Assembly: GCA_032250835.1 (NCBI GenBank)
Contig: JAVVEA010000020.1
Location: forward strand, 1-63,315
DNA: 63,315 nucleotides
Direction of reading: 5' to 3'
Source of the DNA: a bacterium
GTDB taxonomy: Bacteria; SAR324; XYD2-FULL-50-16
Under the pieces are notes generated by a model. It was not told the DNA's origin. It saw only the letters and a program-made list of their open reading frames with translations, and did not search any database. Both the position numbers and the translations under genes were made by a program. The stretch's first letter is position 1, and every line of letters begins with the position of its first letter. This document shows, one piece after another, positions 1 through 17,854 of this stretch.

Positions 1-135
1 CGGTTCGGGGAGGGCCGCTTGGTAAGGGGCTCTTATTGATACCCCCATAAAAAATGGATTAAAATAGCAATTATACTAACGGCCTATACATGCCATACCT
101 AGGGGCACCTAAAAATAATTCTTGGCAAGCCCAGT

Positions 136-543
136 TTGAACCTGTTAAGCCTCCTCGAAACTTGTTTTGTGAGACCTGTGAGACCGATTCTTACCTTTTT
201 TGCGCTGCTGGCGGTGTTGGCCAATTTGGTCAACGCCACCTCAAGCTGTCATATGCTGCAAAGCGGCCAACCCGAACTTTCCGGGTTGGCCGCTTTGCAG
301 GTGGTATGCGTCACTCACTTAGGCGAGGAGCCGGCTGAAGACGAGCCCTCCGATAGCGCTGCGGTGGACCTATGCTGCCACCAGCTCCAGAACCATTCGA
401 TCGCTTTTAGTCTGTTGAACCCGCACTGGGAATGGTTGGAGCTGCCTACCAAAGCCGTTGTCTATCCAGCCGCCCAAGTTCTTCCTAGTTCCGCGTCTCG
501 TTCGTTCCGTCTCCCGCCCCGCGCACCGCCGCTGCAAGCCTAA
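136..543 (+). CDS. DUF2946-like (CruR/CutF-type) exported leader peptide with C-terminal RAPP arrest motif
   Basis: Hydrophobic N-terminus (ILTFFALLAVLANLV), ALQVVC, CCH motif, Pro-rich tail ending RLPPRAPPLQA; upstream of a TonB-dependent receptor. True start may be the in-frame GTG at 169 or 178. Confidence 0.75.
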   Translation: MNLLSLLETCFVRPVRPILTFFALLAVLANLVNATSSCHMLQSGQPELSGLAALQVVCVTHLGEEPAEDEPSDSAAVDLCCHQLQNHSIAFSLLNPHWEWLELPTKAVVYPAAQVLPSSASRSFRLPPRAPPLQA

Positions 544-604
544 TTTCAGAGTTGTTTTAATCCTGATTTTTATTTGGCTGGGCTCTGTCTAGCTGGCTTG
601 ACGG

Positions 605-979
605 GTGTGTCTCTTGTTATCTTGGTTGGTTCGGCCTTTTTGGGTCCAAATTTTTGCGCTGTTGATGGCGCTAGATATTTACGGTCTAGCCGCCAACTGC
701 AGCCCTTTGCCCAGCGTACCGAGCCCGCCCAGCCCCTCTTTTGCCGCACTCCAGCAGGTCTGCGGTACTACCGCGAGTGATTCAGAAGAGCCCGAAGGAC
801 CGCAGCGCTGCGACCAGTGCAGGCATTGTCAGTTGGCCGGTCGAGGTCTGCTCCCTGAGGCTACAACAGTCCAACTTCCCGTTATCCTCAGCCTCGTGGA
901 AGCGCCGACGCTTCCGTTGGTTATTCCTGTCCCCTCCAAGGGGCCTAAGTGCCTCTCCCGCGGTCCGCCTTCGGTTTAA
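605..979 (+). CDS. Second DUF2946-like leader peptide, CxxCxxC and C-terminal RGPP motif
   Basis: Hydrophobic N-terminus, AALQQVC (paralogous to AALQVVC of the first peptide), CDQCRHC, Pro-rich tail ending SRGPPSV; ends 64 nt before the receptor ATG. Start uncertain. Confidence 0.7.
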   Translation: MCLLLSWLVRPFWVQIFALLMALDIYGLAANCSPLPSVPSPPSPSFAALQQVCGTTASDSEEPEGPQRCDQCRHCQLAGRGLLPEATTVQLPVILSLVEAPTLPLVIPVPSKGPKCLSRGPPSV

Positions 980-1043
980 GCTCGTCCTTTATCGGTGGCT
1001 CTTTGTGCCGCCCAACGAATTAAACCTCTTTGCAAAAAAAAAC

Positions 1044-3197
1044 ATGAAGGCTTTGTCTATAAGTTTGTCCGCCCTACTCCTGCTTTCCCCTATGGCCCTA
1101 AAGGCCCAGCAGCAGGAAATTGAAGAACAGCTGATCGATGAAATCAGCGTCACCGCGACCCGCACGAAACGAAAAACCTCTGAGGTCTCGGCTTCGGTTT
1201 CGGTGGTCAATAGCGAGAAGTTGGAAGACGAAAGTATGTACAACATCAAGGATGCCCTGACCTCGACTCCGGGCGTTCAGATCGACACCAAAAACGGCGG
1301 CTACGACAGCCGCTTGGTGATCCGCGGGGCTGGCTTGAAGGCCGCTTACGGGGTGCGCGAGATCATGGTCTTGTTAGATGGGGTGCCGGTCACTGATCCC
1401 GACAGCTTCACCCGCTTCGACCTGATCGATACCCAAAATATTGAGCAAATTGAGGTGGTCAAAGGCCCGAACTCTACTCTTTGGGGCGCTAATGCCGCGG
1501 GCGGTGTGGTCAACATCATCACCAAAGACCCGCTCAAAACGAAACAGGGCAGCCTTAAGGTCGGTGCGGGCAACTTCGGCCGGGCCAACGCCAACATCTT
1601 TTGGAACGACAACCTGGGCGGTAGCCTCTTCTACAATCTTTCGCTAAGCCACCGGGAAGCGAAAAACGACTGGCGGCGTTGGAACGAGTTTTCCACCGAT
1701 CAAGTCTCTTTGGCCCCTACCTGGATGTTCGAAGACGGTAGCTCCCTAGAGACCCGGCTGGTCTATAGCCAAGCGGACATGCAACTGCCCGGCAGCTTAG
1801 ACGAAGAAATGTTTAAGACCTATGAAGAAACGGGAAAAGCCCCCGAGTCCACCGGCATCTGGCAGTATTCGGGACGTTATTCGACCAACTCCTACCTCTC
1901 GACACGCTTCAAAAAGCAGATCGGCAATTGGGAAATCGTGCCGATGCTGTACGCCAACCAATGGAGCCATCGCCACCCGGTCTATGCCCAAATCGGCAAG
2001 GCCAGCGCACTCAACTTAGGGACGGACCTTCAGGCAAATTTAGAGCACCCATCAGGAACCTTGACCTTTGGCATCAGCCAGCGGCAGGAAAACTATGACT
2101 CCAAGTCTTACGCCTTCGGGGATGTGGAAACCGAAAGGGTCACCTCGCGGTGGGCTAGCTATGATAAGATCGTCAAGGTCAACAGCGATGCCGAGGGCGA
2201 ACTGAACGAAACCGGGAAGCGCTCGACCCAACTGAGTGGGGTTTATATCCAGGAGTCTTGGCGGCCCGCCGATGGTTGGATTGTGGACGCCGGAGTCCGG
2301 CATGACCAAATAGGTTTTAACCTGTCCGGGGAAATCTACCGCTATTATTCGAGCTACACTTCCACTTACAGTGACTGTGGCTCGACGGCGACGGACTGCG
2401 GCGGTACCGCGGTGGATCAAGGAAAATACGACTTTAGCAAAAACTATTCGGCCACCAGCCCGAGAATCGGGGTGAACTACCGGGTCGCTCCGGGTGCTAA
2501 CGTTTATGCAGCCTTGGCTTCGGGCATCCAAACCCCGACTCAGGGCGAGCTTTCTTCCAACCACCAGTTGGAGTTGGTCCAGAGTATCAACTACGAAATG
2601 GGCCTGAAGATGCGCCAGAACCAGTTTGAGCTGGACAGCGCAGTTTACCAGAACCTTCTGAGCAATGAGGTGGTCAAGGTCATCAACAGCGATGGGCGCA
2701 CCGAATACACCAACGCAGGCAAGACCAAGAAGTTGGGCTTTGAGTTTTCCGGCAACTACCAGGTGAGCGACGAGGTCACTGCGGGTCTCTCTTATACGGC
2801 CAATGATTTCCGCTTTGTTGACTATATGGAACCGGTCTCTTCAAACGGCACGACGGTCTTAGTGGACCGCTCCGGCAACCGGATGGCCTACTCTCCCGAT
2901 CAAATGTATAGCCTAATGGCAGGATACAAGCAGCCCCAAGGGCTACGGGCCTCGATGCAGGCGGACAGTTGGGGAGCCTACTACATTGATTCGGAAAACT
3001 CGCAAACCTACGAGGGCTTTCAGTTCGTCACCAAGGCCATGGTGGGCTACGAATTGGGTCGCTATGACCTCCGTTTTAATGTGGAAAACCTCTTCGACCA
3101 ACGCTACGCCGTCGAGGTCACCAAGTCTTACGGAAGTAAGTACTACAGCCCCGCTGCTCCGCGGACCTTTTTGCTAACCCTCTCAACCAAGCTATAG
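1044..3197 (+). CDS. TonB-dependent outer-membrane receptor
   Basis: Signal peptide MKALSISLSALLLLSPMALKA; TonB box DEISVTAT; plug motifs IRG, LLDGVP, IEVVKGPNSTLWGANAAGGVVNIIT; barrel end NVENLFDQRY...PRTF. ATG 1044 preferred over the ORF-track start at 741. Confidence 0.95.
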   Translation: MKALSISLSALLLLSPMALKAQQQEIEEQLIDEISVTATRTKRKTSEVSASVSVVNSEKLEDESMYNIKDALTSTPGVQIDTKNGGYDSRLVIRGAGLKAAYGVREIMVLLDGVPVTDPDSFTRFDLIDTQNIEQIEVVKGPNSTLWGANAAGGVVNIITKDPLKTKQGSLKVGAGNFGRANANIFWNDNLGGSLFYNLSLSHREAKNDWRRWNEFSTDQVSLAPTWMFEDGSSLETRLVYSQADMQLPGSLDEEMFKTYEETGKAPESTGIWQYSGRYSTNSYLSTRFKKQIGNWEIVPMLYANQWSHRHPVYAQIGKASALNLGTDLQANLEHPSGTLTFGISQRQENYDSKSYAFGDVETERVTSRWASYDKIVKVNSDAEGELNETGKRSTQLSGVYIQESWRPADGWIVDAGVRHDQIGFNLSGEIYRYYSSYTSTYSDCGSTATDCGGTAVDQGKYDFSKNYSATSPRIGVNYRVAPGANVYAALASGIQTPTQGELSSNHQLELVQSINYEMGLKMRQNQFELDSAVYQNLLSNEVVKVINSDGRTEYTNAGKTKKLGFEFSGNYQVSDEVTAGLSYTANDFRFVDYMEPVSSNGTTVLVDRSGNRMAYSPDQMYSLMAGYKQPQGLRASMQADSWGAYYIDSENSQTYEGFQFVTKAMVGYELGRYDLRFNVENLFDQRYAVEVTKSYGSKYYSPAAPRTFLLTLSTKL

Positions 3198-3207
3198 GAG
3201 TCTCCCC

Positions 3208-4113
3208 ATGTTAAGGCTGATTTTATGGTCCCTATTGCTGACCCCTTGGGCGCTTCAGGCAGAGCCCTTGCGGCTGAGCCTGGACCCGCCCGGAGCGGGG
3301 AGCCAAAAGGCCTCTTATGAGTCCAGCCACGCGCCAAAGATGATGCGCAAATACTGGGTTCACGGGCAGGCGGAAAACTTGTCGGCTCAATTATTGACTG
3401 CCGATGGCGTCCAACATCCGCTCGTCCCGGTCCAGGAGTCTGGGGCCAGTTATTTAAGCTTTAAGACAGGGTTCATGGACGGGCCTTTACATGGGGTCAA
3501 TCAACTCTATGCCCAAAGCCGCCGCGTTGAGGGCCCTGACCTAAGGGTAGAGACGGCTCAGTGGTATAATGTCAACCATAGCTGCGGCTGGGGCCACCCC
3601 TTCCGCGCTGAGCCCGAAGGCTTGGCCCCTAAGGCATCGGGCATCGATGGCTTAGAACTGCTGGTAGAGCACCTTTGGGACGGCAACCTGCACAAAAGCA
3701 CCGAAGCGGGGGACCAGTTGCAGATCACCGCCTTGCTTAAGGGCAAGCCGGTGGCTGGGGTGGAACTAGCAGTCACTACCGGAAGCGGCTGGTCCAAAGG
3801 TCTGGTCTCTGATGAACAGGGCCGGGCACAGGTGCAATTGATTGGGGACTACTTCCCCGGAGACTGGTCTCGCTTTAAGGCGCGCCACCAAAGCTCTTTG
3901 TTGATTACCGCTCGCTACCAGAGCCTACAGGCCGGTACCTTTGAAAACCAGCCATACCAGTCGATCAACTACCAGACCAGTCTCCCCTGGAACTTCACCC
4001 CCGAGCGGAGCGGTTACCAAAAATATGAGACCGGGGCCCTGTTGGGTTTTGGGGGCTTCCTGGCCTCGGGCTTGGGGGTCTTTTTTTGGCGCTTTAAGCG
4101 CAGGAGGTGGTGA
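3208..4113 (+). CDS. Exported, C-terminally membrane-anchored protein (DUF4198-like beta domain)
   Basis: Signal peptide, HSCGWGH motif, LLKGKPVAGVEL...SDEQGRA segment, C-terminal TM helix followed by RFKRRRW; GGAG RBS. Confidence 0.7.
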   Translation: MLRLILWSLLLTPWALQAEPLRLSLDPPGAGSQKASYESSHAPKMMRKYWVHGQAENLSAQLLTADGVQHPLVPVQESGASYLSFKTGFMDGPLHGVNQLYAQSRRVEGPDLRVETAQWYNVNHSCGWGHPFRAEPEGLAPKASGIDGLELLVEHLWDGNLHKSTEAGDQLQITALLKGKPVAGVELAVTTGSGWSKGLVSDEQGRAQVQLIGDYFPGDWSRFKARHQSSLLITARYQSLQAGTFENQPYQSINYQTSLPWNFTPERSGYQKYETGALLGFGGFLASGLGVFFWRFKRRRW

Positions 4114-5084
4114 TGCGGCGATTTCTCGATTTAATGGACATCCGCAAATTCCGCTGGTGGGTCCAACTCTTTGGGTTTGTGCTGTTTGTCTATGGCGCAA
4201 ACTTTGGGTTGGTTTTGGACCAAGACCTGCCGACCTTTGCTTGCCCCTACGTTGACGGGCGCAGCGGCAACTGCATCTTGTTTGTGCTACAGCACCGCCT
4301 AACCATTCCTTTGGACCAAGTAGTGACCATGCGCGGGCTCGGTTTGTTGATGGCACTGGTGGGCTTTTTTATTTGGTTTGTGGCTCTGTCTAAGTCTTGG
4401 TGTGGTTTTATGTGCCCTATGGGGACCCTGCAAGACGCTATAGCCGCCCTTAGGGAAAAAATGGGTATCCCCTACAGCACCTATGCCAAGCCAACGATGG
4501 CCAAGCTGGGGAAGATCAAGTGGGTCTTGTTGTCGCTATTGCTGCTGATTCCTTTGGCTATGGCCAATGCGCTCCCAGGAGTGGGCAAATTGAGCCACGA
4601 ATGGGCCACACCCTTTTGTATGATCTGCCCTAGCCGGACCCTGCTGCCCCTGTTTTCGGGCGATTTCTCGCAGTTGGGCTTGGACCTTAGCTCTATCCCT
4701 AAGCTGGTTTTAACGGGCCTGGGGCTGCTGGTGACGGGCGCGGTCTTGGTGGGGGCTTTTGTCAAAAAACGCTTCTTTTGCCTCTTTTGCCCCATGAGTG
4801 CGCTGCATTATGTGTTCAGCAAATTAGCCTTTTTGAAGCTGATCAAAGAGCCCGACAAATGCACTCGCTGCGGAAATTGCTACCGGGCTTGCGACGTGGG
4901 GATTCATGAGATCGCCGAAGACCTAGAGCACCGCAACCTGACCACCCAAAACTGTTTGCTCTGCCTAGACTGCATCTCTGCTTGTCCCGAAGAAGACTGC
5001 CTCAAGCTGACCTTTATGGGCAAACCTCTATACCGCAGCACCGAGCTGGGCTTTTTTAAACGCCATTCCAATGAGTCTAAGTGA
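4113..5084 (+). CDS. Membrane 4Fe-4S-binding polyferredoxin (NapH/MauN-like)
   Basis: Several TM helices, WCGFMCPMG and FCLFCPM motifs, two ferredoxin motifs CTRCGNCYRAC and CLLCLDCISACP; TGATG overlap with the upstream stop. Confidence 0.9.
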   Translation: MRRFLDLMDIRKFRWWVQLFGFVLFVYGANFGLVLDQDLPTFACPYVDGRSGNCILFVLQHRLTIPLDQVVTMRGLGLLMALVGFFIWFVALSKSWCGFMCPMGTLQDAIAALREKMGIPYSTYAKPTMAKLGKIKWVLLSLLLLIPLAMANALPGVGKLSHEWATPFCMICPSRTLLPLFSGDFSQLGLDLSSIPKLVLTGLGLLVTGAVLVGAFVKKRFFCLFCPMSALHYVFSKLAFLKLIKEPDKCTRCGNCYRACDVGIHEIAEDLEHRNLTTQNCLLCLDCISACPEEDCLKLTFMGKPLYRSTELGFFKRHSNESK

Positions 5085-6346
5085 CCCCGAATCCAAAACA
5101 ACAAGCAGCAGCCTTCAAGCATGCTGCCATGGAAGCGATGTCCGTCTTGGACCGCATTTGTAATGAGTTTCCTGATAACCCCAAAGCGATGGGCCGCTTC
5201 TACCGGTTCTTTGAGCAACGCCACCAAGGGCAAGCTGATTGGGGGCCAGCAGGCACCCGGATCGGAACCGCCTGTGTGCAGGTGCCCGAAGAATTGATTT
5301 ATGCCGTGGGCGCGACACCGGAGCGGTTGTGTAACGGTGCCTATACCTTTGACCAGATCGGTTCGGAATTTTTGCCGATCAAGTCCTGTTCGCTAGTCAA
5401 GGCTACCCATGGGGTCCTGGCCATGCAAAACCGGCCCGACCGGCTCCCCTTGGTGGTGCTGCCTACCACCTGTGACCAAAAGAAGAAGTCCGGCGTGCTT
5501 TTAGAAGATATGGGCTACCACACCTGGGTGATGGAAATGCCTCCCTACAAAGACACCCCCGAGGCAGTCGAGTATTGGCGGGCTAGCGTAGCCAAGCTGG
5601 CCGGGGAGTTGGAGCGCACGACGGGGCGCAAGATCACCAAAAAGGGCCTGCGGGACGCCTTGGCCAAGACCCAAGCGGCCAAAGCCCAGTACCGAAGGTT
5701 CCACCAACTCCGCAAACTGGACCCGGCGGTCATTTGGGGCAAAGACGCCTTTTTAGTGACCAATAGCTACTTCTTCGCCCCCATTGAAGACTGGACTGAC
5801 GCCTTGAGTCAGCTAAATGACGAACTGGAAAAAAGGCGGGATACCGGAACGTCTCTGGGTGGCAAGAAGGCACCGAGGGTTTTGTTTACCGGGAGTCCCC
5901 CGATTTTTCCGAACCTAAAGGTTCCCTTGATGATCGAAGAATTGGGCGGGCTGCTGGTTACCGACGAGGTTTGCTCGTCGACCCGTTTGCTGTACGACGC
6001 CCCGGCTCCGGTGGAAGAGGGGAAATACGAATGGGTAGAGTCCATTGCCGACCGCTACCTTAAGCCCTGCACCTGCCCTTGTTACGCGCCCAACGAAGAC
6101 CGCAAACGCAAACTGGCCCGTTTGGTCGAAGACTTTGCGGTCGACGGAGTGATCTACCAATCCCTTTCGGGGTGCCAGCTTTATGAATTTGAACAGAAGC
6201 CGGTAGAACGCTTCTTGGCCGAGCGGGGCATCCCGATGTTGTATCTGGAGTCGGACTACAGTCCTGAGGATCAAGGCCAGCTGTCGACGCGGATTGAAGC
6301 CTTTTTGGAATCATTGAAAACCAAAAAACGAAAGAGGAAGCTGTGA
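5081..6346 (+). CDS. 2-hydroxyacyl-CoA dehydratase-family Fe-S protein, double-cubane cluster protein (DCCP)-like
   Basis: VPEELIYA, KSCSLVK, TTCDQKKK, EVCSSTR, CTCPC, GCQLY, LESDYS...GQLSTRIEAFLE; single subunit next to an activator. Confidence 0.85.
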   Translation: MTPNPKQQAAAFKHAAMEAMSVLDRICNEFPDNPKAMGRFYRFFEQRHQGQADWGPAGTRIGTACVQVPEELIYAVGATPERLCNGAYTFDQIGSEFLPIKSCSLVKATHGVLAMQNRPDRLPLVVLPTTCDQKKKSGVLLEDMGYHTWVMEMPPYKDTPEAVEYWRASVAKLAGELERTTGRKITKKGLRDALAKTQAAKAQYRRFHQLRKLDPAVIWGKDAFLVTNSYFFAPIEDWTDALSQLNDELEKRRDTGTSLGGKKAPRVLFTGSPPIFPNLKVPLMIEELGGLLVTDEVCSSTRLLYDAPAPVEEGKYEWVESIADRYLKPCTCPCYAPNEDRKRKLARLVEDFAVDGVIYQSLSGCQLYEFEQKPVERFLAERGIPMLYLESDYSPEDQGQLSTRIEAFLESLKTKKRKRKL

Positions 6347-7155
6347 ATCCGTCTTATTTTGTGGGGATCGATATCGGTTCGACCACCATCAAAGCGGTCC
6401 TGATTGATCGGAACCAAACCATCCAAGGGCAGGTCAAACGCCCTACTGGCGGTAACTACCACCAAAACGCCAAGGAAGCTTTTGATCAACTGCTCGCTGA
6501 GGCGGACGTGGACCCTGAGGCGGTGGGCTATGTGATCAGTACCGGCTATGGCCGCAAGCTCTTTAAATTGGCCGATGAGACGATCAGCGAAATCACCGCC
6601 AACGCAAGGGGGGCGGTTAAGGTGGGTGAAGGGGCCGGCACGGTTCGGACGGTAATCAACATTGGCGGCCAGGACCTAAAAATTATTGCCCTAGATGAAG
6701 ACGGGCATTGCAGTAATTTTGCGATGAACGACAAATGTGCCGCCGGGACCGGACGGTTCTTAGAGATGGTGGCGGTCAATTTGGAGGTGGAATTAGAGGA
6801 ATTAGGCCAGCTGCATGCCGACTGCCAGGCGACACCGGTGGTCATCAACTCAACCTGCACCGTTTTCGCTGACTCGGAAATCATCAGTATTTTGGCCAAA
6901 GGCCACAGCAAGGCCGAGGTGGTCGCCGGGGTGCACTACAGCATCGCCCGGCGGATCGCCCGCCTCACCAAGCGGGTGGGCGTCGATGGGATCGTGTTGT
7001 TCGACGGCGGTCCGGCGTTAAATCCCGGATTAGTCGAAGCGGTCCAAACCGAACTCATGCGCGAGTTGTTGGTTCCCCAGTACCCGCAAATGACTACCGC
7101 ATGGGGGGCGGCGATTTTGGCGCTAGAAGCGGCCCAGGAGCTTCACGATGCTTGA
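6343..7155 (+). CDS. ATP-dependent electron-transfer activator (HgdC/BcrAD/BadFG family, DCCP reductase-like)
   Basis: GIDIGSTTIK, STGYGR, IGGQD, MNDKCAAGTGRF, STCTVFA motifs. Confidence 0.92.
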   Translation: MNPSYFVGIDIGSTTIKAVLIDRNQTIQGQVKRPTGGNYHQNAKEAFDQLLAEADVDPEAVGYVISTGYGRKLFKLADETISEITANARGAVKVGEGAGTVRTVINIGGQDLKIIALDEDGHCSNFAMNDKCAAGTGRFLEMVAVNLEVELEELGQLHADCQATPVVINSTCTVFADSEIISILAKGHSKAEVVAGVHYSIARRIARLTKRVGVDGIVLFDGGPALNPGLVEAVQTELMRELLVPQYPQMTTAWGAAILALEAAQELHDA

Positions 7156-7762
7156 ATTGGCCTCTCTCTTTTTACTGGGCCTTGTCAACGGCGGGAGCGT
7201 TTGCGCGCTCAGTTGCCTGCATTACCTGGGTCCCTATTTGGTTACCGAAGGGGAAGGGTTCCGCAGCGGCGTCAAGACCACCGGCTGGTTTTTGGCCGGA
7301 AAGGCCTTCGGTTATACGCTCTTAGGTGGGGCTGCGGGCTTGATGGGGCAGTTGGTGAATCAGTGGATGGAGACCTGGGGGAAAAATTTGATGGCTGTCG
7401 CCCTGTTGGGTTTGGCCCTAAGTCTCGCTTTGCGTGCCCCCAAAGCCTGCCCCAAGCCGAGCGGGCGAGAGCCCTTTAAATTGTTCACCTTGGGCCTGAG
7501 TACCGGGGCGCTCCCTTGCCCGGCTTTGGTAGCCCTGCTTTTGGCGGCCAGCACCCGCGGCAGTTGGGTAGGTGGGGTGGAATTGGGTCTGGCCTATGGC
7601 TTGGGGATCGCCGCCAGCCCCTTAGCCTTGGTCGGCGGCGGCGTGGCGCACCTGGGGCGTCATCTGCGGGTCGAGGTGGGCTCTTTTTTGCCTTGGCTCA
7701 GGCGTTTGAGCTTTGTGGTGATTGCGCTTTTAGGACTTAAACTGATTTTAACGGAGTTTTAG
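7148..7762 (+). CDS. DsbD_2/TauE-SafE-like membrane protein with Cys motifs
   Basis: About 6 TM helices, CALSC in the first helix, GKAFGYTLLG, LPC motif. Confidence 0.75.
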   Translation: MLELASLFLLGLVNGGSVCALSCLHYLGPYLVTEGEGFRSGVKTTGWFLAGKAFGYTLLGGAAGLMGQLVNQWMETWGKNLMAVALLGLALSLALRAPKACPKPSGREPFKLFTLGLSTGALPCPALVALLLAASTRGSWVGGVELGLAYGLGIAASPLALVGGGVAHLGRHLRVEVGSFLPWLRRLSFVVIALLGLKLILTEF

Positions 7763-8188
7763 ATGCAGTGGATGAATGATCTGGTCGACTTCGGCATGAT
7801 GGGGCTCTTAGGGGCCTTGAGTTTTTTAGCCTTGGCGGTGGTGGTGGAACGCTGGTTGGTGTACCGCAAGCTTGAGCCGGGCGCTTTTAAAAGCCGCAAA
7901 CAGCTGGAATTGGTGCTTTCGACGAGGTTGCATCTGCTCGCCACTATTGGGAGCAACGCCCCCTATTTGGGCCTCTTAGGGACCGTGTTGGGGATCATGT
8001 TGACCTTTTACAATCTCGGCCAATCAGGGCAAATGGACTCGGGAAAAATCATGACCGGCTTGGCGCTGGCCATGAAGGTAACGGCCCTGGGCTTGGTGGT
8101 GGCGATCCCCACGGTGACGGCCTATAACCTCTTGCAGCGGCGGGCCAAAGTGCTGTTGATGCGGTGGGAAATTGCCCAGGAGGCTTGA
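7763..8188 (+). CDS. exbB: TonB-system energizer ExbB (short form)
   Basis: LATIGSNAPYLGLLGTVLGIM and ALAMKVTALGLVVAIP MotA/TolQ/ExbB motifs. Confidence 0.92.
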   Translation: MQWMNDLVDFGMMGLLGALSFLALAVVVERWLVYRKLEPGAFKSRKQLELVLSTRLHLLATIGSNAPYLGLLGTVLGIMLTFYNLGQSGQMDSGKIMTGLALAMKVTALGLVVAIPTVTAYNLLQRRAKVLLMRWEIAQEA

Positions 8189-8571
8189 TGGACGAGCAGG
8201 AGTTCAGCCAGATGAATGTGATGCCCTTGGTGGACGTTATGTTGGTGCTGTTGACCATCGTTTTGACCACCAGCAGCTTCATCGCCACCGGGCATATCCC
8301 GGTAAACCTACCCCAGACCGGTGGCCGGGCTGAAAAGCCGGTCGAAGCGGGAAAAATGCTTGAAATCAATGAGGCAGGACAGGTTTTTTTTGAAGGCCAG
8401 CCCCAGGAAGTCGCCCAGTTGGAGCAGGTATTAGAGCCCGTTGAACGCAACCTTAAGATCACCTTACGGGCAGACCAAAACATCCGGTTGGGCCGATTTG
8501 TGGAGGTGATGGACCTACTCAAACGCATGCAGTTCACCCGGCTGGAATTGGTGACCGAGGTCCAGCCGTGA
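8188..8571 (+). CDS. exbD: Biopolymer transport protein ExbD
   Basis: MNVMPLVDVMLVLL, LRAD motifs; TGATG coupling to exbB. Confidence 0.92.
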   Translation: MDEQEFSQMNVMPLVDVMLVLLTIVLTTSSFIATGHIPVNLPQTGGRAEKPVEAGKMLEINEAGQVFFEGQPQEVAQLEQVLEPVERNLKITLRADQNIRLGRFVEVMDLLKRMQFTRLELVTEVQP

Positions 8572-9227
8572 ACGCTTGGCGTTGGGGAATCTTGGTGAGT
8601 CTGATGGCACACTGCGCGCTGGCGGGAGCTATTTGGTCTTTTATGGCCCTCTCGTCTCGTCCGAGTAAGCCTTACCAATTAGACTTAGACATGACCTTTT
8701 CCAGCAGTTCCGGTGGGCAAGCCAGCCAGTCGGTGGCCCAAGTAGCCCCGCAGCCACAGAAAAAAAAGCGTCCAGTCCAGCCTAAGCAACCGACCGCAAA
8801 GCCCCCAGCGGCCCCTAAAGAGGAGGTGGAGGCCGTCGCAACGGCCCCCGGGACGCAGCGCCCTGAACCCAGCGGTCCGACCGAAGCCGAAGCCCAACCA
8901 GAGCAGCCTGAAAAGGACCCGGAACAAGAACAGCGCGGGCTGCGGCGTAATTATGTCAAAGCCCATGGCAGGCATTTGGCCCAGGCTATCCGGGCGCATT
9001 TCGACTACCCAGAGTTGGCCCGAAGCCGGGGTTGGTCCGGCAAGGTCCTGGTGGCGGTGCTGATCGGGACTAATGGGACGGTGCGGTCGATAGAGTTGGT
9101 ACGCAGTTCGGGCTTCGAGTTGTTAGACCATTCGGCGCTCAAAACCCTAAGGGCGATCAAACAGCTTCCGGCACCGCCAAAGGAAACCCGATTGATCTTA
9201 CCCATCAGCTTTAAGTTGCAGGGTTAG
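8568..9227 (+). CDS. tonB: Energy transducer TonB
   Basis: N-terminal TM with SxxxH (SLMAH), Pro/Lys/Glu-rich linker, YPELARSRGWSGKV...SSG...LD C-terminal domain. Confidence 0.92.
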   Translation: MNAWRWGILVSLMAHCALAGAIWSFMALSSRPSKPYQLDLDMTFSSSSGGQASQSVAQVAPQPQKKKRPVQPKQPTAKPPAAPKEEVEAVATAPGTQRPEPSGPTEAEAQPEQPEKDPEQEQRGLRRNYVKAHGRHLAQAIRAHFDYPELARSRGWSGKVLVAVLIGTNGTVRSIELVRSSGFELLDHSALKTLRAIKQLPAPPKETRLILPISFKLQG

Positions 9228-9458
9228 AGTCTGCCGCCGCTGAACTGCGCTTGCTGCTAAAAGACGGGATAGGCGCAGGGCTGCAATTGGATCCAGAGTT
9301 CCGGGCGGTCTTGGTGCCAAAGGTACCAGGCGGCCAAGCTGCCTGCCGAGGCTTAAGCCCAACAGCAGCAGCAAGAGCCCGGGTGAACTCCAATAGGTAC
9401 GGGAACCGATTTTTAGGTGGAAATGCCCCTTTTCGAAAAAAAAATTCATGGGCCATTA

Positions 9459-9475
9459 TTGAAAATCATTTTGAA
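9459..9475. promoter_or_regulatory. Fur-box-like palindrome
   Basis: TTGAAAATCATTTTGAA, one mismatch from the WTGAAAATnATTTTCAW deltaproteobacterial Fur consensus; lies between convergent genes. Confidence 0.45.
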
Positions 9476-9507
9476 TTCTATGGCACATTGGCTTGGTGCG
9501 TCGAGTT

Positions 9508-10533
9508 TCAAAATTTCCCCTCGATCTTGCCCGCATAGCCCGTCATCTCCAGGTAGCCCTGTCCGGTCACCGCTTGGCCCTGCCACTGGCCCTCTACTTC
9601 CACGGCTCCCTCAAAATAGATCATCCCGGCCACCGGGGTGCGTAGCTCTTGGTCGGCCCGCCAGGGGGTTAGGCGTAGTTGGCCCTCGGGGGCCTGAACT
9701 AGGAACCCGGCGGGGTAGCGGGTTTTGCTCGCTCCGCTGGTCCACTGGCCTTGGGGGATCAGTTCGAAGCCTCGGTAGGCGGTGGCGGGGCCCTGGGCCG
9801 GAATCCAGGTGCCCCAAAGGAAGTCGGGGCCCGGTTCTTGGCGGATGCGGAAGAGCATTAACTTAAGCCCGGAATTTAGGCTCAAGGTCACCCAGTCCCA
9901 GCCCTTCTGCTGGGGCTCTAAGAAGTTGCTGCCAAATTCATGGTCCATCCAGGCTTGGGCTTTCAGCTCCCTGCGTTGCCCTTGCCAGTCCAGCACTGCC
10001 GTTCCCTCTAAGTCCACTACCGAATAATAATGGCTGGCGTTGCCGGGCTTAGTTCCTTTGGGGCTGATCCCGTCGGTTCCGTGTACCACCGGCGGGCGCT
10101 GGTGGGTGAGGTTTAAGGTGAGGTCCGCTCCTTGGCAATGGCTGGTCATCCGGTGGCGGTTGCCTTCGATCTGCAATCGGTTGTTCTCGACCCACAAGAC
10201 GCCGTTTTTATAGCCCGCCAAGCCCGGAAACTCACGCTGCAAGCGCTCATCAAAAACAAATTTGCCTTGCGGCGGCGTCAAGGCGCAGTGGAAGAGGAAG
10301 GCGGTGCTGCCTTCGCGTTCTAGCTTAAAGATCGTGAACTGGAAGCCATAACGTTCTGGGCCGCCGTCCAGATGGCCGGTGTAATACCACCATTCGGTTT
10401 TATAGCCCCGGTGTAAGCCGTGGTCTTGGGGGAAGGAAAAGGGGTAACCCGCTTCGGCCTGTTTAAATTCCCCCGCCTGGACCGGAGTCCAAGTCAATAA
10501 AAATAAACTAATCAGCCACAGCCAAGTTTTCAT
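9508..10533 (-). CDS. Secreted AttH-like / lipocalin-like (CrtC-family) protein
   Basis: Signal peptide, FPQDHG.H, EWWYYTGHL, WMDHEF, GWDW, YFEG, GYLEMTGY. Confidence 0.88.
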   Translation of the reverse strand: MKTWLWLISLFLLTWTPVQAGEFKQAEAGYPFSFPQDHGLHRGYKTEWWYYTGHLDGGPERYGFQFTIFKLEREGSTAFLFHCALTPPQGKFVFDERLQREFPGLAGYKNGVLWVENNRLQIEGNRHRMTSHCQGADLTLNLTHQRPPVVHGTDGISPKGTKPGNASHYYSVVDLEGTAVLDWQGQRRELKAQAWMDHEFGSNFLEPQQKGWDWVTLSLNSGLKLMLFRIRQEPGPDFLWGTWIPAQGPATAYRGFELIPQGQWTSGASKTRYPAGFLVQAPEGQLRLTPWRADQELRTPVAGMIYFEGAVEVEGQWQGQAVTGQGYLEMTGYAGKIEGKF

Positions 10534-13010
10534 TGTCCCTCACTTTTTAAGACCTGCGCCGGTTCGGCTTTGGCCAGAGCGCGGATCGGCACCAAAGAAG
10601 CCAGCGCAGCCCCGGCTAAGATCAAAAGCCCCGTCTCGGCCAATTCACCCCAGGGGATATGGGTGACGATGGTCCAGCCGAAGGAGAATCGGTTGATCAC
10701 GTCGATCAACATCCAGCTAAGATAAAAGGCCCCCAAGGAGGCTAGCAGCAAAGCCGCCGAAGCGATCACCCAAGATTCGGTGAGTAGAGCCCAGCGCAGC
10801 ATTGCGGGCTTGGCCCCTAAGGCCAACAGCAGCGCCAGCTCCCCTTTGCGTTCTAAGATCATCGCGCTCAAGCTGGCGACGACCGCCAAGATCGAGATGC
10901 CGAAGGCGATCAGCTGCAAAAGTTTGGTCATGCGGAAGGTCTGGTCGAAGATTTCTAACGCCCTGGCCTTGATCTGTCCGCTTTGGCTGATGTCGATCCG
11001 CAGGTCTTTAAATAATTCGCGGACCTTTAATTGGCCCCTTTGGGCGTCTAAGCCGGGGCTCAAGAAGACGGCCAGCCCGATGGCCTGGGCCCCAGGGAAT
11101 AGCGCCTTGTATTGACCCACATCCAGGTAAACCAGCCCCCGTTGGCTGCTGTAGTTGCGGAAGACACCGAATATTTCAAAGTTCCGCCCCGCCAGCTTTA
11201 GCGCGTCACCTCGGCCCAGCCCGGTCTTTTCGGCCAATACCTCACTGATCAAAACGCCGCCTTGTTCTAAGGCCTCGCCAAAGGCTTGCGGGCTGCCGGA
11301 AACAAAGCTAATGCTTTTTTGGTAGTTGGCCTTGGCGAACTCGACGCCCGCCAAATCCACCTCCCGCTCGCCCAGGTAGGCGCGGGTCATGTAGAGTTGC
11401 AGAGTTGCTTCAACCCAAGGCTGGGCGCTCAATCGCTGGACCACCTCGGGCGGCAGCTCGCCGGCTGGGGAGCGGTCGTTGGACTCGCTTTTAAGGTATA
11501 GGTCCGCCTGGATGGTGGTCTCCATCCAGTTGATCAGCGTCGCCCGGAAACTATGCACCATCACCGCCACCGAACCGGCCATGGACAAGGAAACGGCTAG
11601 GGCGGCCACCGCCACCGAAAGCTTAAACAAATGCCCCCGGATCGAGGCCCGCAGGAACAGGCCCAACCCGTCGCCGCGCGCCAGCAAAGCGACCAATCGC
11701 TCCAACAGCAGCGGAGCCAAGAAGCTTAAGCCCGTGACCGCCGAAAAGATGCTGATAAAACCCATCCAATAGCTGCGGCTGGCGAAGGCCGCCCAGGCGA
11801 CCGTTAACGCCAGCCCAATCAACCCTAACCCCAACCCGGTGGCCTTGACGACGCCCTTGGGGTCAAATTCGCTGATCTTTTGCTTGAGTCCCTGGGCGGT
11901 TTGGAACTTGACGGCCCGGCGGGCGGGGTGCCAAGCGGCGAGCAGGCAGGCGGCGACGCCCAGGGCCATGCTCCCTAGGGGGCCACTTAAGTCGCGGTAA
12001 GGCAGCCGGGCGTCGGTTAGGTAAAAAAGATTGGTCAAGCTTTCACTGACTTCCCCGTAAGACAGACGGCTCAAGGCCCAGCCGCCTACGGCACCGAGCA
12101 GGCCGCCCAGTAGGCCGAAGAACAGGCCCTCTAACATTAAGGCTAAAAAAACCTCCCGCTCCTTGGCCCCCAACGCCGCCAAGACGTTCAGGTCCCTCCG
12201 CCGCTCTAAGACCGAGATGTTCATGGCATTATAAACCAAATAACAACTGACCAACAGAGCGATCAGGCCGAGCGCACCGAGGTTCATCTGGAAGGCTTCC
12301 AGCATGTCTGAAGTAAAGCGTTGCTTGGCGGCGACGGTGACGATCCGGGCGGTCGGGAAACTCTCGGCTAGCCGGGCCTGCACCTCGGCCAACTGGTTTT
12401 GTTCCACCCAGATGTCGAGGCCGCTTAAGCGTGGGTGCCAGGGTAATACCTCGCTTAGGTCCACAAAAGCCGCACCTAGCGGGGGTAACTTGCCGTTGAT
12501 GGCGCGGATGGTCCCGGCCAGCGGCAGGCGGTGGGCTTGGCTGCCCACCACCAATTCGACCGAGTCTTGGCCTGCTAAATCGCTGTCCTGGGGAACCCAG
12601 AGGCCTTTGGGTGGCTGGTCCTTGAGGGTTTTAGAAAGCTCATATTGGCGGATGCGGCGGTCGCCCAAAAAGTCAAAGGCATAGAGGTCTACCCGTTGTT
12701 TGTTCCAACTAGTTTCCAGCTTAATGAAAGGCGAGAAATAACCCACATCCCACAGCCAATTTAGCTCCCAAAGCCGCTGGGCGTCGATCCCTCCGGTTTG
12801 GGTCAACTGTAGGTTCGCCTTGCCGGAGAGGTGGGCGATGCTGCTCGAAAAGCTATGGATCACCCGGTCGTTGGTGCTGCGGATCGCTGTGGATACCGCC
12901 ACCGCCAGGGCCACGCCCAATACCGCCAGGGCCAAGCGTCCGGGTTTGCGTTTGTAGTGGGCCCAGGTCAGGGTCCCGAAGAGTGCGGCAAGCCGAGCTA
13001 TAACAGGCAC
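10530..13010 (-). CDS. ABC transporter permease, duplicated FtsX/MacB type
   Basis: Two repeats of periplasmic domain plus TM block; ERRRDLNVLAALGA and ERKGELALLLALGA. Confidence 0.9.
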   Translation of the reverse strand: MPVIARLAALFGTLTWAHYKRKPGRLALAVLGVALAVAVSTAIRSTNDRVIHSFSSSIAHLSGKANLQLTQTGGIDAQRLWELNWLWDVGYFSPFIKLETSWNKQRVDLYAFDFLGDRRIRQYELSKTLKDQPPKGLWVPQDSDLAGQDSVELVVGSQAHRLPLAGTIRAINGKLPPLGAAFVDLSEVLPWHPRLSGLDIWVEQNQLAEVQARLAESFPTARIVTVAAKQRFTSDMLEAFQMNLGALGLIALLVSCYLVYNAMNISVLERRRDLNVLAALGAKEREVFLALMLEGLFFGLLGGLLGAVGGWALSRLSYGEVSESLTNLFYLTDARLPYRDLSGPLGSMALGVAACLLAAWHPARRAVKFQTAQGLKQKISEFDPKGVVKATGLGLGLIGLALTVAWAAFASRSYWMGFISIFSAVTGLSFLAPLLLERLVALLARGDGLGLFLRASIRGHLFKLSVAVAALAVSLSMAGSVAVMVHSFRATLINWMETTIQADLYLKSESNDRSPAGELPPEVVQRLSAQPWVEATLQLYMTRAYLGEREVDLAGVEFAKANYQKSISFVSGSPQAFGEALEQGGVLISEVLAEKTGLGRGDALKLAGRNFEIFGVFRNYSSQRGLVYLDVGQYKALFPGAQAIGLAVFLSPGLDAQRGQLKVRELFKDLRIDISQSGQIKARALEIFDQTFRMTKLLQLIAFGISILAVVASLSAMILERKGELALLLALGAKPAMLRWALLTESWVIASAALLLASLGAFYLSWMLIDVINRFSFGWTIVTHIPWGELAETGLLILAGAALASLVPIRALAKAEPAQVLKSEGQ

Positions 13011-13642
13011 CCGTCCTCCATGGTGACGATCCGGTCGGCCACCGCCCCAGCCTGCCTGCTATGGGTGACCATCACCAACGTCATGCCCTCGGCCTGTTGT
13101 AGCTCTTTGAGCAACGCCATGATGGCCTCGCTGTTTTTGCGGTCTAAGTTGCCGGTCGGTTCATCGGCCAGTAGGATTTTGGGTTGCAGCGCCAGGGCGC
13201 GGGCAATGGCCACGCGTTGCTGCTCGCCGCCCGAGAGCTTTTGGGGCAGTTGCCCGGCTTTGCCTGCTAAGCCGACCCGGTCTAAGAGCGCTTTGAGCCG
13301 GTCTTTGTCGGCAGGCCGCCCCGAAAGGCGCAGTGGTAGTGTTAGGTTTTCTAAGGCCGTCAAGCCCGCCAAGAGGTGGAAGTCTTGGAAGATCATGGCC
13401 AAATGCTCGCGGCGGAAGGTGACCAGTTGGTCTTTACTGCGGCCTACCAGCTCCACCCCGGCGACCTGCAACTGACCGCCATCGGCGCGGTCTAGTCCCG
13501 CTAAAAGATTGAGCAGACTGGTTTTACCGCTGCCTGACTCACCCATGATGGCCACAAACTCGCCCGGAGCTATGTTAAGGTCAACGCCCCTAAGGACCGG
13601 CTGTCCGCCGTAATGTTTAACTAACTGTTGCGCTTGGATCAT
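12998..13642 (-). CDS. ABC transporter ATP-binding protein (LolD/MacB-like)
   Basis: GESGSGKT, LSGGEQQRVAIARAL, LLADEPTGNLD, VTH. Confidence 0.95.
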   Translation of the reverse strand: MIQAQQLVKHYGGQPVLRGVDLNIAPGEFVAIMGESGSGKTSLLNLLAGLDRADGGQLQVAGVELVGRSKDQLVTFRREHLAMIFQDFHLLAGLTALENLTLPLRLSGRPADKDRLKALLDRVGLAGKAGQLPQKLSGGEQQRVAIARALALQPKILLADEPTGNLDRKNSEAIMALLKELQQAEGMTLVMVTHSRQAGAVADRIVTMEDGCLL

Positions 13643-17005: not shown

Positions 17006-17389
17006 GGGACCAAAAGCGAATGTTTGTTCTCTTATTGTGGAGAACAAAACCCACAAAAGCAAGGATCAATCGAATGGAGGCCCCATCAGGTGCTTTAAAT
17101 GGCTAGCAGGGTCAAGGGGGCTTTGCCTTGGCAAGTTATGGGCCGAGTAATGCGGGGGCTGTGCCTGCGGTCCAGACAAAGGGTTGGTCGTCCTACCCAA
17201 CGCCCAGTGCTGGAACCCAGGGGCCCTTTGGCCCTGGCGCTCGCCAGTGCGTATAAAAGGAAGGCTTGGGTCCCCTCGGGTTGTGGTTTGCGGCAGATTT
17301 AAAACAGCGCACCGAAGGGGTATATTAGAACTGCCCGAGAGAACACCCAGCCTTTCTGGCACAGAGCGGGGGGTAGCGGCCCGGAAAGA

Positions 17390-17854
17390 TCAACTGCTGG
17401 AGCAATGCCCAGGAACCGCCAATTTAAGCTTGGATACCTCTTCTTGGCCCACCGCAACGTCTTGTTCCCTCAAATCGGCACCGCCGACAAAAACGCCGAG
17501 TTTAATGTATTGTTCCACAAAATATAACCTGCCCTTTTTCGGGTTGATCACGATACGGTTGGGGGAAAACTCAGATTCGGTGGCGATGGAGTGGGGTAGG
17601 TCTCCATCCACTTCCTGATAAAAAAAGACCCCCTTTGCCGTTTCGCCCACACAATCCTGATCAATCCAAACATCTTTTTTAAGGCCTGCACCGGCGAAGG
17701 AATCTATCCGGTAAATATAGACTCCGGCCTTATCGGGGCTTGGGGCATTAAACTGTTTAGCTTGCGCGGAGTTTGAAGGCGGGGCCAGGGGTACCGAAGC
17801 GCAACCAGCTAGCATAGCGAGCAGAGCGATCACCGCGACAAAAATGGGTTTCAT
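17390..17854 (-). CDS. DUF2846-like lipoprotein
   Basis: Lipobox LAGC; KAGVYIYR...TESEFS...YFVEQYIKLGVFVGGA. Confidence 0.8.
   Translation of the reverse strand: MKPIFVAVIALLAMLAGCASVPLAPPSNSAQAKQFNAPSPDKAGVYIYRIDSFAGAGLKKDVWIDQDCVGETAKGVFFYQEVDGDLPHSIATESEFSPNRIVINPKKGRLYFVEQYIKLGVFVGGADLREQDVAVGQEEVSKLKLAVPGHCSSS

Follow-up and report, generated by a model that had tools for sequence, protein, structure and literature searches.

What does an ATP-driven, double-cubane reductase do in the middle of an operon for TonB-dependent import? This question is raised by contig JAVVEA010000020.1 (assembly GCA_032250835.1) of a SAR324 bacterium (XYD2-FULL-50-16), analysed here over positions 1 to 63,315 (hereafter the window). 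A preliminary description of this DNA had counted ten same-strand genes at 136-9227; reading of the open reading frames (ORFs) together with Pfam and NCBIfam matches gave eleven, all on the + strand (Table 1). In order, these are two leader ORFs (uORF1 and uORF2) and the genes for a TonB-dependent receptor, a periplasmic protein with a DUF4198 fold, a NapH-like membrane polyferredoxin, a reductase resembling double-cubane cluster proteins (DCCPs), its ATP-dependent activator, a DsbD_2 membrane protein, ExbB, ExbD and TonB. We read the operon as a form of TonB-dependent metal uptake that is conserved but has not been described, with an ATP-driven double-cubane reductase built into it; copper is the most likely signal that controls it in this lineage. 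The cargo would be a metal chelate that is released by reduction, and the preliminary description, which had proposed import of a chelate or cofactor followed by its reductive release or activation, appears right in outline.

A conserved operon with a predicted ATP-driven double-cubane reductase

In a PDB search, the best match of the reductase was the DCCP of C. hydrogenoformans (7YYL, 2.6e-62; 6ENO, 7e-62); BzdN (1.4e-24) followed far behind, as did a 2-hydroxyacyl-CoA dehydratase (3e-16). Since its score against the NCBIfam double-cubane model NF040772 was 333.1 bits, just under the cut-off of 350, it is best called a sister clade of the curated DCCP family. DCCPs share the seven-cysteine motif CX19CX18-19CX29CX166-170CX32-34CX32C (10.1101/2022.07.06.499078), and the reductase carries C65-18-C84-18-C103-27-C131-166-C298-33-C332-32-C365, in which two spacers are 1-2 residues shorter than in the motif (18 and 27, compared with 19 and 29 in the C. 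hydrogenoformans protein). All seven cysteines were invariant in 35 homologues. The PDB ranking, the NF040772 score and the cysteines thus bear out the earlier call of a DCCP-like Fe-S reductase. A canonical acyl-CoA dehydratase, which the preliminary description had kept in view, and a class I benzoyl-CoA reductase were both rejected on the single subunit, the PDB ranking, which places the protein closest to DCCP, and the NCBIfam scores (18-87 bits for the HadB/HadC and Bcr/Bzd models, with cut-offs of 421-750). Because the gene is the only HGD-D gene in this 97%-complete genome, a heterodimeric dehydratase or benzoyl-CoA reductase is excluded, and the Pfam scan of the operon showed no CoA ligase or transferase.

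The adjacent activator scored 237 bits against TIGR00241, above the cut-off, and its PDB matches were HadI (1e-58), HgdC (6e-49) and DCCP-R (7YYL_E, 1.8e-41). The cysteines expected to hold the bridging cluster, C132 and C172, were kept in at least 90% of 78 homologues. The protein is a standard archerase with both cluster cysteines, as the earlier assignment to the HgdC type had implied. DCCPs are described as nitrogenase-like ATP-driven reductases that number thousands in genomes and whose physiological function is stated to be unknown, and their double-cubane cluster is reduced only through its ATPase and not by dithionite or Ti(III) citrate (PMC9351452). The window pair resembles DCCP/DCCP-R of C. 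hydrogenoformans in its single HGD-D-type subunit with seven cluster cysteines and in the neighbouring ATPase of the homodimer-type ASKHA fold with two cluster cysteines. It differs in that its clade is always found beside the NapH-like polyferredoxin, the DUF4198-fold protein and DsbD_2, and mostly beside TonB-system genes; in the Haft preprint, what other DCCPs are connected with is a selenoprotein ABC locus rather than TonB systems (10.1101/2022.07.06.499078).

In order to follow this association, one genome per species was sampled, which gave 80 loci with DCCP relatives of 49-57% identity; 19 of these were shorter than 12 kb, and 64 had enough flank for an upstream receptor to be judged. 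The loci span six or more phyla and come from sulfur-oxidising Gammaproteobacteria, Rhodocyclaceae, Gallionellaceae, Sulfuricellaceae, Desulfobulbales, Nitrospirota, Spirochaetia, Bacteroidota and others; two culturable carriers are Azovibrio restrictus DSM 23866 (L046) and Azonexus caeni KACC 11481 (L037). Counted by ORF clustering, the activator occurs in 77 loci, followed by the NapH-like protein (76), the DUF4198-like protein (73) and DsbD_2 (70), and the module genes always stood in one order on one strand. By tblastn, all five core genes were present in 58 of the 80 loci, any receptor in 58, ExbB in 33, ExbD in 16 and TonB in 23. In 48 of the 64 judgeable loci, the distance from the end of a receptor gene to the DUF4198-like gene downstream of it was under 600 nt; a second receptor followed DsbD_2 in 21 loci, and the receptors had 21-47% identity to that of the window. 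In the organism's own family, a clear orthologue of the DCCP-like gene was found patchily, in 2 of 18 other genomes, and in both carriers the whole run of nine genes, receptor to TonB, is present with its order unchanged. The neighbourhood search suggested in the preliminary description, for a TonB-dependent receptor with HGD-D, BcrAD_BadFG, Fer4_5 and DsbD_2, therefore returned a recurring module. Synteny of the reductase/activator pair with TonB genes, whose absence elsewhere would have refuted the preliminary description, stood in most loci, a quarter of the judgeable ones having no adjacent receptor, and the dedicated ExbB-ExbD-TonB set held for the window lineage (both relatives) and for a minority of the loci overall.

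Within the window, every overlap reported in the preliminary description was found again by direct reading: TGATG at 4111-4115 and 8186-8190, GTGA at 5081, 6343 and 8568, an 8-nt overlap at 7148-7155 and TAG/ATG at 7760-7765. As read from these junctions, the genes from the DUF4198-like gene through tonB are translationally coupled. The unit ends at 9227, since the next genes (9508-13642) lie on the - strand and are unrelated to the operon; at the other end, the window starts at the contig end, 135 nt before uORF1. The operon has no ABC importer, as had been noted before. The earlier statement that no described pathway has this gene set was borne out by full-text literature searches, in which no paper joined TonB-dependent systems with double-cubane proteins, or CoA dehydratase, TonB, copper and BadF; the Price et al. 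preprint mentions only DUF2946 among the operon's genes. The conserved operon ties one DCCP clade to an importer, a metal-binding protein and a membrane polyferredoxin, which gives these proteins a concrete, testable job.

The polyferredoxin, the periplasmic protein and the DsbD_2 protein

The NapH-like protein has four predicted transmembrane segments by hydropathy scan; of its 16 invariant cysteines, eight belong to two ferredoxin motifs and the other eight to the membrane part. It shares with NapH/MauN, NosH/NosR and CcoG the Fer4_5 transmembrane part, the CX3CP-type motifs and a cytoplasmic two-cluster ferredoxin domain. Unlike NapH/MauN and NosH/NosR, it lacks a NapG/NapC or Nos partner: the Pfam scan found no nap genes in the operon, and the score against TIGR02163 was 61.6 bits, with a cut-off of 213. 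It also differs from CcoG, which is reportedly a cupric reductase, since no CcoG-family match was among the NCBIfam matches listed for it. A further difference from NapH/MauN-type proteins is that it was modelled as a docking partner of the DCCP-like protein.

The pairwise complex prediction proposed in the preliminary description was run on the DCCP/NapH-like pair. The model reached an interaction score (ipSAE) of 0.67 in three runs, and the best of three controls reached 0.01. The mark applied to this score is reached by 58 of 80 solved complexes and by 2 of 110 mismatched pairs, a rough calibration since our own alignments were used. The runs share at least 91% of their contacts, and the partner has a predicted local distance difference test (pLDDT) score of at least 74. 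On the NapH-like side, the modelled interface covers residues 248-259, which include the first 4Fe-4S motif (C250, C253, C256), 286-292 and 311-319; on the DCCP side, it covers 306-329 and 340-350, which flank the cluster cysteines C330 and C332. Because the PDB sequence search with the NapH-like protein returned generic ferredoxin domains only, it seems unlikely that the score comes from the model's memory, and we know of no solved DCCP-ferredoxin complex. The model supports binding of the DCCP-like protein to the polyferredoxin. Since the double-cubane cluster is reducible only via its ATPase, the simplest flow would be from the activator to the double-cubane cluster and on to the polyferredoxin, with electrons moving out of the DCCP-like protein.

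The periplasmic protein, a secreted protein of 301 amino acids, was modelled with AlphaFold2 (AF2) at a pLDDT of 87.7 as two beta-sandwich domains followed by a C-terminal helix (267-300), which the hydropathy scan at the threshold chosen did not call transmembrane. The Pfam match to DUF4198 (PF10670) covers only residues 166-211 and gives 21.4 bits, below the cut-off of 34; the predicted model has the DUF4198 fold. In Foldseek, the nine best matches were all chains of Zcp and IsDUF4198, with a clear gap to the next, led by Zcp with Zn, Cu or Co bound (E 7e-10, TM 0.61-0.63) and followed by the nickel-bound Ideonella DUF4198 protein (1e-6); a PDB sequence search found nothing. Zcp (Neisseria gonorrhoeae, 9MHL) and IsDUF4198 (Ideonella sakaiensis, 9GCB) share with it the two-domain beta-sandwich fold, and as periplasmic metal binders they are often encoded beside TonB receptors. 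In contrast, the window protein has about 10% identity to them and adds the C-terminal helix and a basic tail, and where the metal site of Zcp consists of three histidines (H29, H31 and H142), it lacks the N-terminal His pair and has Cys126 at a ligand-like position. Of 75 homologues, 52 have Cys in this column and 14 have His, and the swap of these two residues makes it resemble a metal ligand. H124, C126, H130, H162 and H227 fall in columns with His in about half of the homologues. The N-terminal HxH, which the window protein does not have, is carried by 32-40 of the 75. The label of a His/Cys protein in the preliminary description is thus right for Cys/His at one well-kept position and wrong for an invariant His. 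As a separate observation, the homologous proteins close with a conserved cytoplasmic tail, RRRR..P[FY].EVRFDE (alignment A1), which the window copy lacks: it stops right after RRRW (4090-4113), where the next gene begins.

The DsbD_2 protein has five hydrophobic segments by hydropathy scan and three cysteines (C19, C23 and C124) that are kept in at least 90% of 72 homologues. The PDB sequence search found nothing for it, and its Atlas neighbours are named as UreH-like proteins, the ArsG permease, NicO, MntP and DsbD/CcdA. Because look-alikes of both kinds occur, it may be the missing inner-membrane transporter or a thiol relay. The earlier description of a Cys-bearing DsbD_2-like protein holds; a thiol-redox role is only as likely as that of an inner-membrane permease.

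Tandem leader ORFs, the metal and the proposed function

Both leader ORFs have the architecture of an arrest peptide, as the preliminary description had it, and they are not the short peptides of that description, being of 135 and 124 codons with an N-terminal hydrophobic segment (residues 10-28 in uORF1 and 1-19 in uORF2 by hydropathy scan). Each has a lone Cys after an 'ALQ..C' stretch, C58 in uORF1 and C53 in uORF2. In uORF1, CCHQ (80-83) is followed after 45 residues by RAPP (129-132), then LQA and the stop; in uORF2, CDQC (69-72, with a further C75) is followed after 46 residues by RGPP (119-122), then SV and the stop. The two are 31% identical over 115 aa by BLAST. They are also paralogous, one to one, to a second tandem CruR-like pair in the same genome (contig C3, 938-1796, - strand; locus L090). 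uORF1 has 30% identity over 120 aa to C3:1440-1796 and uORF2 has 28% over 132 aa to C3:938-1360, where E-values refer to a five-sequence database. Of this second pair, C3:1440-1796 (CEHC-45-RAPP) scores 26.4 bits against Pfam DUF2946 (PF11162), above the gathering cut-off of 23.7 bits, and C3:938-1360 (CTYC-43-RGPP) scores 17.1 bits. A fifth CruR-like ORF, on contig C38, has CGDC-45-RGPP (17.1 bits). Among 24,167 stop-to-stop frames of at least 60 aa in this genome, 20 have R[AG]PP with 0-6 residues to the end, and in five of these a Cys/His motif lies 38-52 residues before it: uORF1, uORF2, C3:1440-1796, the C38 ORF and one frame on contig C1 (C3:938-1360 falls outside this count by its longer tail after RGPP). 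On the basis of architecture and paralogy, the uORFs would be two tandem, divergent members of the CruR/CutF (DUF2946) family, a membership that is weak by score. Tandem arrest peptides with unlike sensor motifs would be a new layout for the CruR/CutF mechanism.

The C3 pair points at the contig end 937 nt off, and its target genes are unassembled. The C38 ORF heads three genes (C38:153644-157294, - strand; locus L089) for a 544-aa secreted Ig-like/Ser-Thr-rich protein, a 315-aa protein that ends in F, has no Pfam match and is possibly an outer-membrane barrel, and a thioredoxin-like lipoprotein with a weak AhpC/TSA match. This set may be another copper-regulated unit.

CruR of Bordetella pertussis, the first gene of cruR-bfrG-bp2921, has CXXC, 45 residues and then RAPP, the arrest motif, with three residues left to the stop; the operon stays on as long as ribosomes stall there, and copper ends the stall (PMC9426467). 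The window resembles that operon in its exported DUF2946-type ORFs placed first, the Cys motif, the 45-residue spacer and the C-terminal RAPP plus three residues, and in the TonB-dependent receptor that follows; PepSY_TM partners, also part of the B. pertussis system, occur in 7 of the related loci here. It differs in having two tandem ORFs, one with RGPP for RAPP, and in the added ATP-driven reductase module. The latter is not listed in the CruR synteny section, whose main text names receptors, PepSY_TM, ScoC, PcuAC, YcnI, CopC, MbnPH and AhpC and no HGD-D/BcrAD (PMC9426467). CutF of Rhodobacter capsulatus (cutFOG) is another DUF2946 member with the same parts and the opposite sign, namely a signal peptide, a Cys/His copper site and a proline-rich stall site at which copper induces stalling and turns on a detoxifying oxidase (10.1101/2025.02.05.636593). 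In the window an uptake operon follows the uORFs, and CruR-like rather than CutF-like logic is therefore expected. Stalling in cutFOG opens a stem-loop that masks the next start (10.1101/2025.02.05.636593), and a weak analogous hairpin is predicted here at 967-1051 (minimum free energy -25.9 kcal/mol, z = -1.75, with 10 of 200 shuffles folding equally well). It pairs the end of uORF2 with receptor codons 2-3 (GCCUUC with GAAGGC), and stalling at RGPP would open the pairing. The relative L088 showed no such hairpin (leader folding z about -0.9), and the uORF1-uORF2 spacer showed no structure (z = -0.12).

The uORFs stand first in the operon, ahead of the receptor, and the same placement is seen in the loci L056, L078, L087 and L088. 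DUF2946 ORFs above the Pfam cut-off were found in L056 (Bacteroidota; a tandem pair immediately ahead of the receptor), in L078 (three, Rhodoferax) and in L060, and the RGPP variant also occurs in an L078 ORF above the cut-off. The same-family relatives have CPYC-45-RAPP (L087, 21.6 bits) and C-45-RAPP (L088, no Pfam match). In L087, a NosL gene (49 bits) lies between the uORF and the receptor. In Pseudomonas, the DUF2946 family is cofit with a copper receptor (10.1101/072470). Further copper pointers are the SCO1/SenC genes behind the module in L050 and L027, the PepSY_TM genes of 7 loci and the one haem-copper oxidase of the organism's own genome. A copper-sensing leader family and NosL in a relative narrow the focus to copper limitation. 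Two further small ORFs before receptors, each with a transmembrane start and unrecognised by Pfam or by our hidden Markov model (HMM, see below), may be additional arrest-peptide variants and are unconfirmed candidates: L068:5255-5512 (…VCHQ-46-RPPRS) and an L050 ORF ending at 5168 (CVHC-26-RRPPAGDD).

The receptor is 52% and 49% identical to the same-operon receptors of the two same-family genomes. A frame that runs from 741 into its gene is an untranslated 5' extension, since the signal peptide starts at 1044 and the two relatives' receptors align from there. At the starts of the window (1044) and L088 (10602) receptors, no Shine-Dalgarno-like sequence was seen and both have an A-rich leader (caaaaaaaaacATG; tataaaaacaATG); several internal operon genes have GGAG/AGGAGG. 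The receptor has an HxH (W-S-H-R-H-P-V-Y; residues 309-311, 1968-1976) that is invariant in the five closest receptors (window, L087, L088, L007 and L073); H335 is kept in four of these five, and so is the Cys pair 445/452.

Putting these elements together, we propose, as close to an even call, that the operon acquires metal reductively and is repressed by copper. Translation would begin with the two tandem CruR-type ORFs. When copper is scarce, ribosomes would stall at RAPP and RGPP and the downstream genes would be on; when the nascent peptides bind copper via their Cys/His motifs, the stall would be relieved and expression would fall. The receptor, powered by the operon's ExbB-ExbD-TonB, would bring a copper species, probably a tight chelate, to the periplasm, where the membrane-anchored DUF4198-fold protein would take up the metal, and the Cys-lined DsbD_2 protein might carry it through the inner membrane. 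On the cytoplasmic side, ATP spent by the archerase would charge the double-cubane cluster of the DCCP-like protein, which, seated on the cytoplasmic ferredoxin domain of the NapH-like protein, would pass very-low-potential electrons into it in order to reduce and loosen the bound metal or ligand at the membrane. By general coordination chemistry, the reduction and release of an oxidised metal held in a tight chelate may call for a very negative potential. The iron-uptake systems with FhuF, FoxB/PepSY_TM and ViuB follow the same plan of outer-membrane import and then reduction that frees a tightly chelated metal; to our knowledge, they use flavin, 2Fe-2S or haem reductases at ordinary potentials and none is archerase-driven. 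A more specific form of this proposal, which we consider somewhat doubtful, is that the natural substrate of DCCPs is the membrane polyferredoxin and that the charged [8Fe-9S] cluster strips copper or another thiophilic metal from TonB-imported chelates, gated here by two serial copper-sensing arrest peptides. If true, this would define a new class of energised reductive metal uptake and give DCCPs their first physiological role. The copper proposal as a whole, should it hold, would show how bacteria of sulfidic and low-oxygen habitats get copper for their oxidases and N2O reductase, and archerases, which serve dehydratases and aromatic-ring reductases, would gain a third use.

Several results weigh against the copper proposal. 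uORF1 has no CXXC motif and carries CCHQ...H87 where it is expected. It matches DUF2946 over profile positions 4-117 of 117 at E=0.0068 and 17.6 bits, below the cut-off, and uORF2 has no Pfam match. Against five bona fide DUF2946 proteins, hhalign gave weak alignments for both uORF2 (E 0.0011, probability 20%, with CxxC and RGPP in register) and uORF1 (E 0.056). The gaps after the uORFs are 61 and 64 nt, compared with 162 nt in B. pertussis. A purpose-built HMM, seeded with ten CruR-like ORFs, found DUF2946-like ORFs in only 3 of the 80 loci, recovering its seeds and two overlapping frames (L078 14867-15330) over an ORF that already passes the Pfam cut-off. Copper chaperone genes are a minority, with NosL in one of the 80 loci (L080, opposite strand, near the module) and in the relative L087, and SCO1/SenC genes after the module in two (L050 and L027). 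Upstream of 47 receptors, Fur, Zur, NikR, CueR, CsoR and ModE boxes, searched with consensus sequences, showed nothing clear over shuffles, and a Fur-like shift was slight (at least 13 of 19 matches in 14 of 47 loci and in 1 of 47 shuffles). An OprC/NosA-type copper receptor (TIGR01778) was rejected, as it was absent among the 25 best of 27 NCBIfam matches. Reduction of Cu(II) to Cu(I) does not by itself need a very low potential, so that the need for one would rest on an assumed tight chelate, and the DCCP/polyferredoxin complex is a prediction.

These points leave room for other cargoes and other uses of the electrons. The same machinery might serve nickel, cobalt, zinc or iron, with leaders that sense that metal or several, and we judge this unlikely. 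The two solved DUF4198 proteins are a zinc protein (Zcp, which in vitro also binds Co, Ni and Cu) and a nickel protein (Ideonella), which also weighs against copper. So do two other points: the DUF2946 family is not strictly tied to copper, since a Caulobacter member adjoins the Zn/Cd/Co efflux cluster czrCBA (PMC4176598), and the locus L026 has a CobN-type chelatase upstream in place of a receptor. For another metal, too, about half of the DUF4198-like homologues have the N-terminal HxH and His-rich stretches, the Atlas neighbours of DsbD_2 include the UreH-like and NicO nickel transporters, and the CCH...H of uORF1 takes the place of a CXXC. Ferric siderophores, moreover, are a known case that needs low-potential reduction. 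Against another metal, both tested members of the leader family respond to copper, and the chaperone genes found in the loci, NosL and SCO1, encode copper proteins. When 148 small and 77 large same-strand neighbours were grouped into families (92 and 107), the 25 commonest of each set included no NikR, Fur, Zur, HypA/B or CbiM family. Riboswitches, whether for cobalamin, NiCo or anything else, were found neither in the window nor in 7 related loci. Many carriers appear from their records to be iron oxidisers of iron-rich settings, where a need to scavenge iron is less likely.

An organic cargo is less probable still: a redox-active or aromatic compound, such as a quinone cofactor or tetrapyrrole, would be taken in and reduced by the DCCP-like enzyme, so as to be salvaged or degraded. 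The nearest solved receptors, YncD (3e-36) and the pyrroloquinoline quinone transporter PqqU (4e-35), speak for this and against copper; however, the similarity to PqqU is far under the cut-off of its family model (166 vs 1200 bits). DCCP relatives among the class I benzoyl-CoA reductases reduce rings at [8Fe-9S] clusters (PMC11971306), and the L026 chelatase would fit as well, as would the DUF4198-like homologues, which have no invariant His and keep Tyr, Trp, Asp and Arg best. Yet the operon has no CoA ligase, hydrolase or other catabolic gene, the receptor type varies (see the identities above) around a fixed core, and the leader peptides, NosL, SCO1 and the metals bound by solved DUF4198-fold members point to a metal. 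We also give little chance to a protective role, in which the DCCP-like protein, the polyferredoxin and DsbD_2 would relay electrons outward and keep periplasmic cysteines or copper sites reduced, the TonB genes being co-located and functionally uncoupled. The kinship of DsbD_2 to the thiol-electron carriers DsbD/CcdA, with conserved cysteines in two hydrophobic segments, and AhpC/TSA-type genes in 4 of 148 sampled neighbours agree with it, and so does the five-gene core without an adjacent receptor in 16 of 64 judgeable loci, which also weighs against an uptake function. The coupling from the DUF4198-like gene to tonB, the adjacent receptor in the other 48 loci and the dedicated ExbBD-TonB of this lineage argue for uptake instead, and thiol reduction needs no ATP-boosted potential. 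CutF-type logic would suit defence, but CruR-type logic is off when copper is plentiful, which is the opposite of defence.

Feature coordinates and neighbouring genes

Table 1. Features read in the operon region of the window, with the basis of each call.
Feature	Position	Strand	Basis
Sigma-70-like promoter candidate, TTGATA-18-TAAAAT	36..65	+	10/12 matches
uORF1, predicted divergent DUF2946/CruR-like ORF, 135 codons from TTG	136..543	+	true start uncertain
RAPP codons of uORF1, predicted stall site	520..531	+	translation
uORF2, second predicted CruR-like ORF, 124 codons	605..979	+	
RGPP codons of uORF2, predicted stall site	959..970	+	translation
Predicted RNA hairpin, uORF2 Pro-Ser-Val-stop codons with first receptor codons	967..1051	+	RNA folding
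TonB-dependent outer-membrane receptor	1044..3197	+	Plug 2.8e-26, barrel 9e-35 (Pfam)
DUF4198-fold periplasmic protein, C-terminal helix and RRR tail	3208..4113	+	weak Pfam DUF4198 match; AF2/Foldseek
NapH/MauN-like membrane polyferredoxin	4113..5084	+	Fer4_5 and Fer4_10
DCCP-like reductase	5081..6346	+	HGD-D 6e-95
ATP-dependent activator/reductase (archerase, DCCP-R/HgdC type)	6343..7155	+	BcrAD_BadFG 2e-54
DsbD_2/LysE-superfamily membrane protein	7148..7762	+	DsbD_2 1.8e-13
ExbB, short, group-2 type	7763..8188	+	MotA_ExbB 8.5e-30; TIGR02805 148.8 bits, cut-off 135 (above)
ExbD	8188..8571	+	ExbD 1.7e-22; TIGR02804 92 bits, cut-off 123 (below)
TonB	8568..9227	+	TonB_C 2e-17; TIGR01352 67 bits, above cut-off

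The promoter is listed as a candidate only, because sigma-70-like sites are no commoner than chance in the region 1-9700 (4 found and 3.7 expected from shuffles). Rfam gave no matches in the whole window. The genes that face the operon from the - strand at 9508-13642 form a convergent set of three, for an ABC ATPase, an 826-aa FtsX/MacB_PCD permease and a CrtC/lipocalin-like protein.

Among the related loci, the upstream region of L026 (an alphaproteobacterial metagenome-assembled genome, 702-7294) holds a 1580-aa CobN/Mg-chelatase-family gene (E 4e-277) and a 791-aa ORF directly before the DUF4198-like gene. In the 7 related loci searched, the only Rfam match was an unrelated 5' ureB small RNA (sRNA) in L046 (Azovibrio restrictus, 17294-17583, 130.6 bits), about 6 kb downstream of the module, and this match implies that urease genes lie near. 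Genes of the MacAB-TolC efflux type (OEP, HlyD, MacB_PCD/FtsX) were found a few kb from the module in four loci; they follow it directly on the same strand in L021 (10233-14717), L030 and L059, and in L052 they lie upstream on the other strand.

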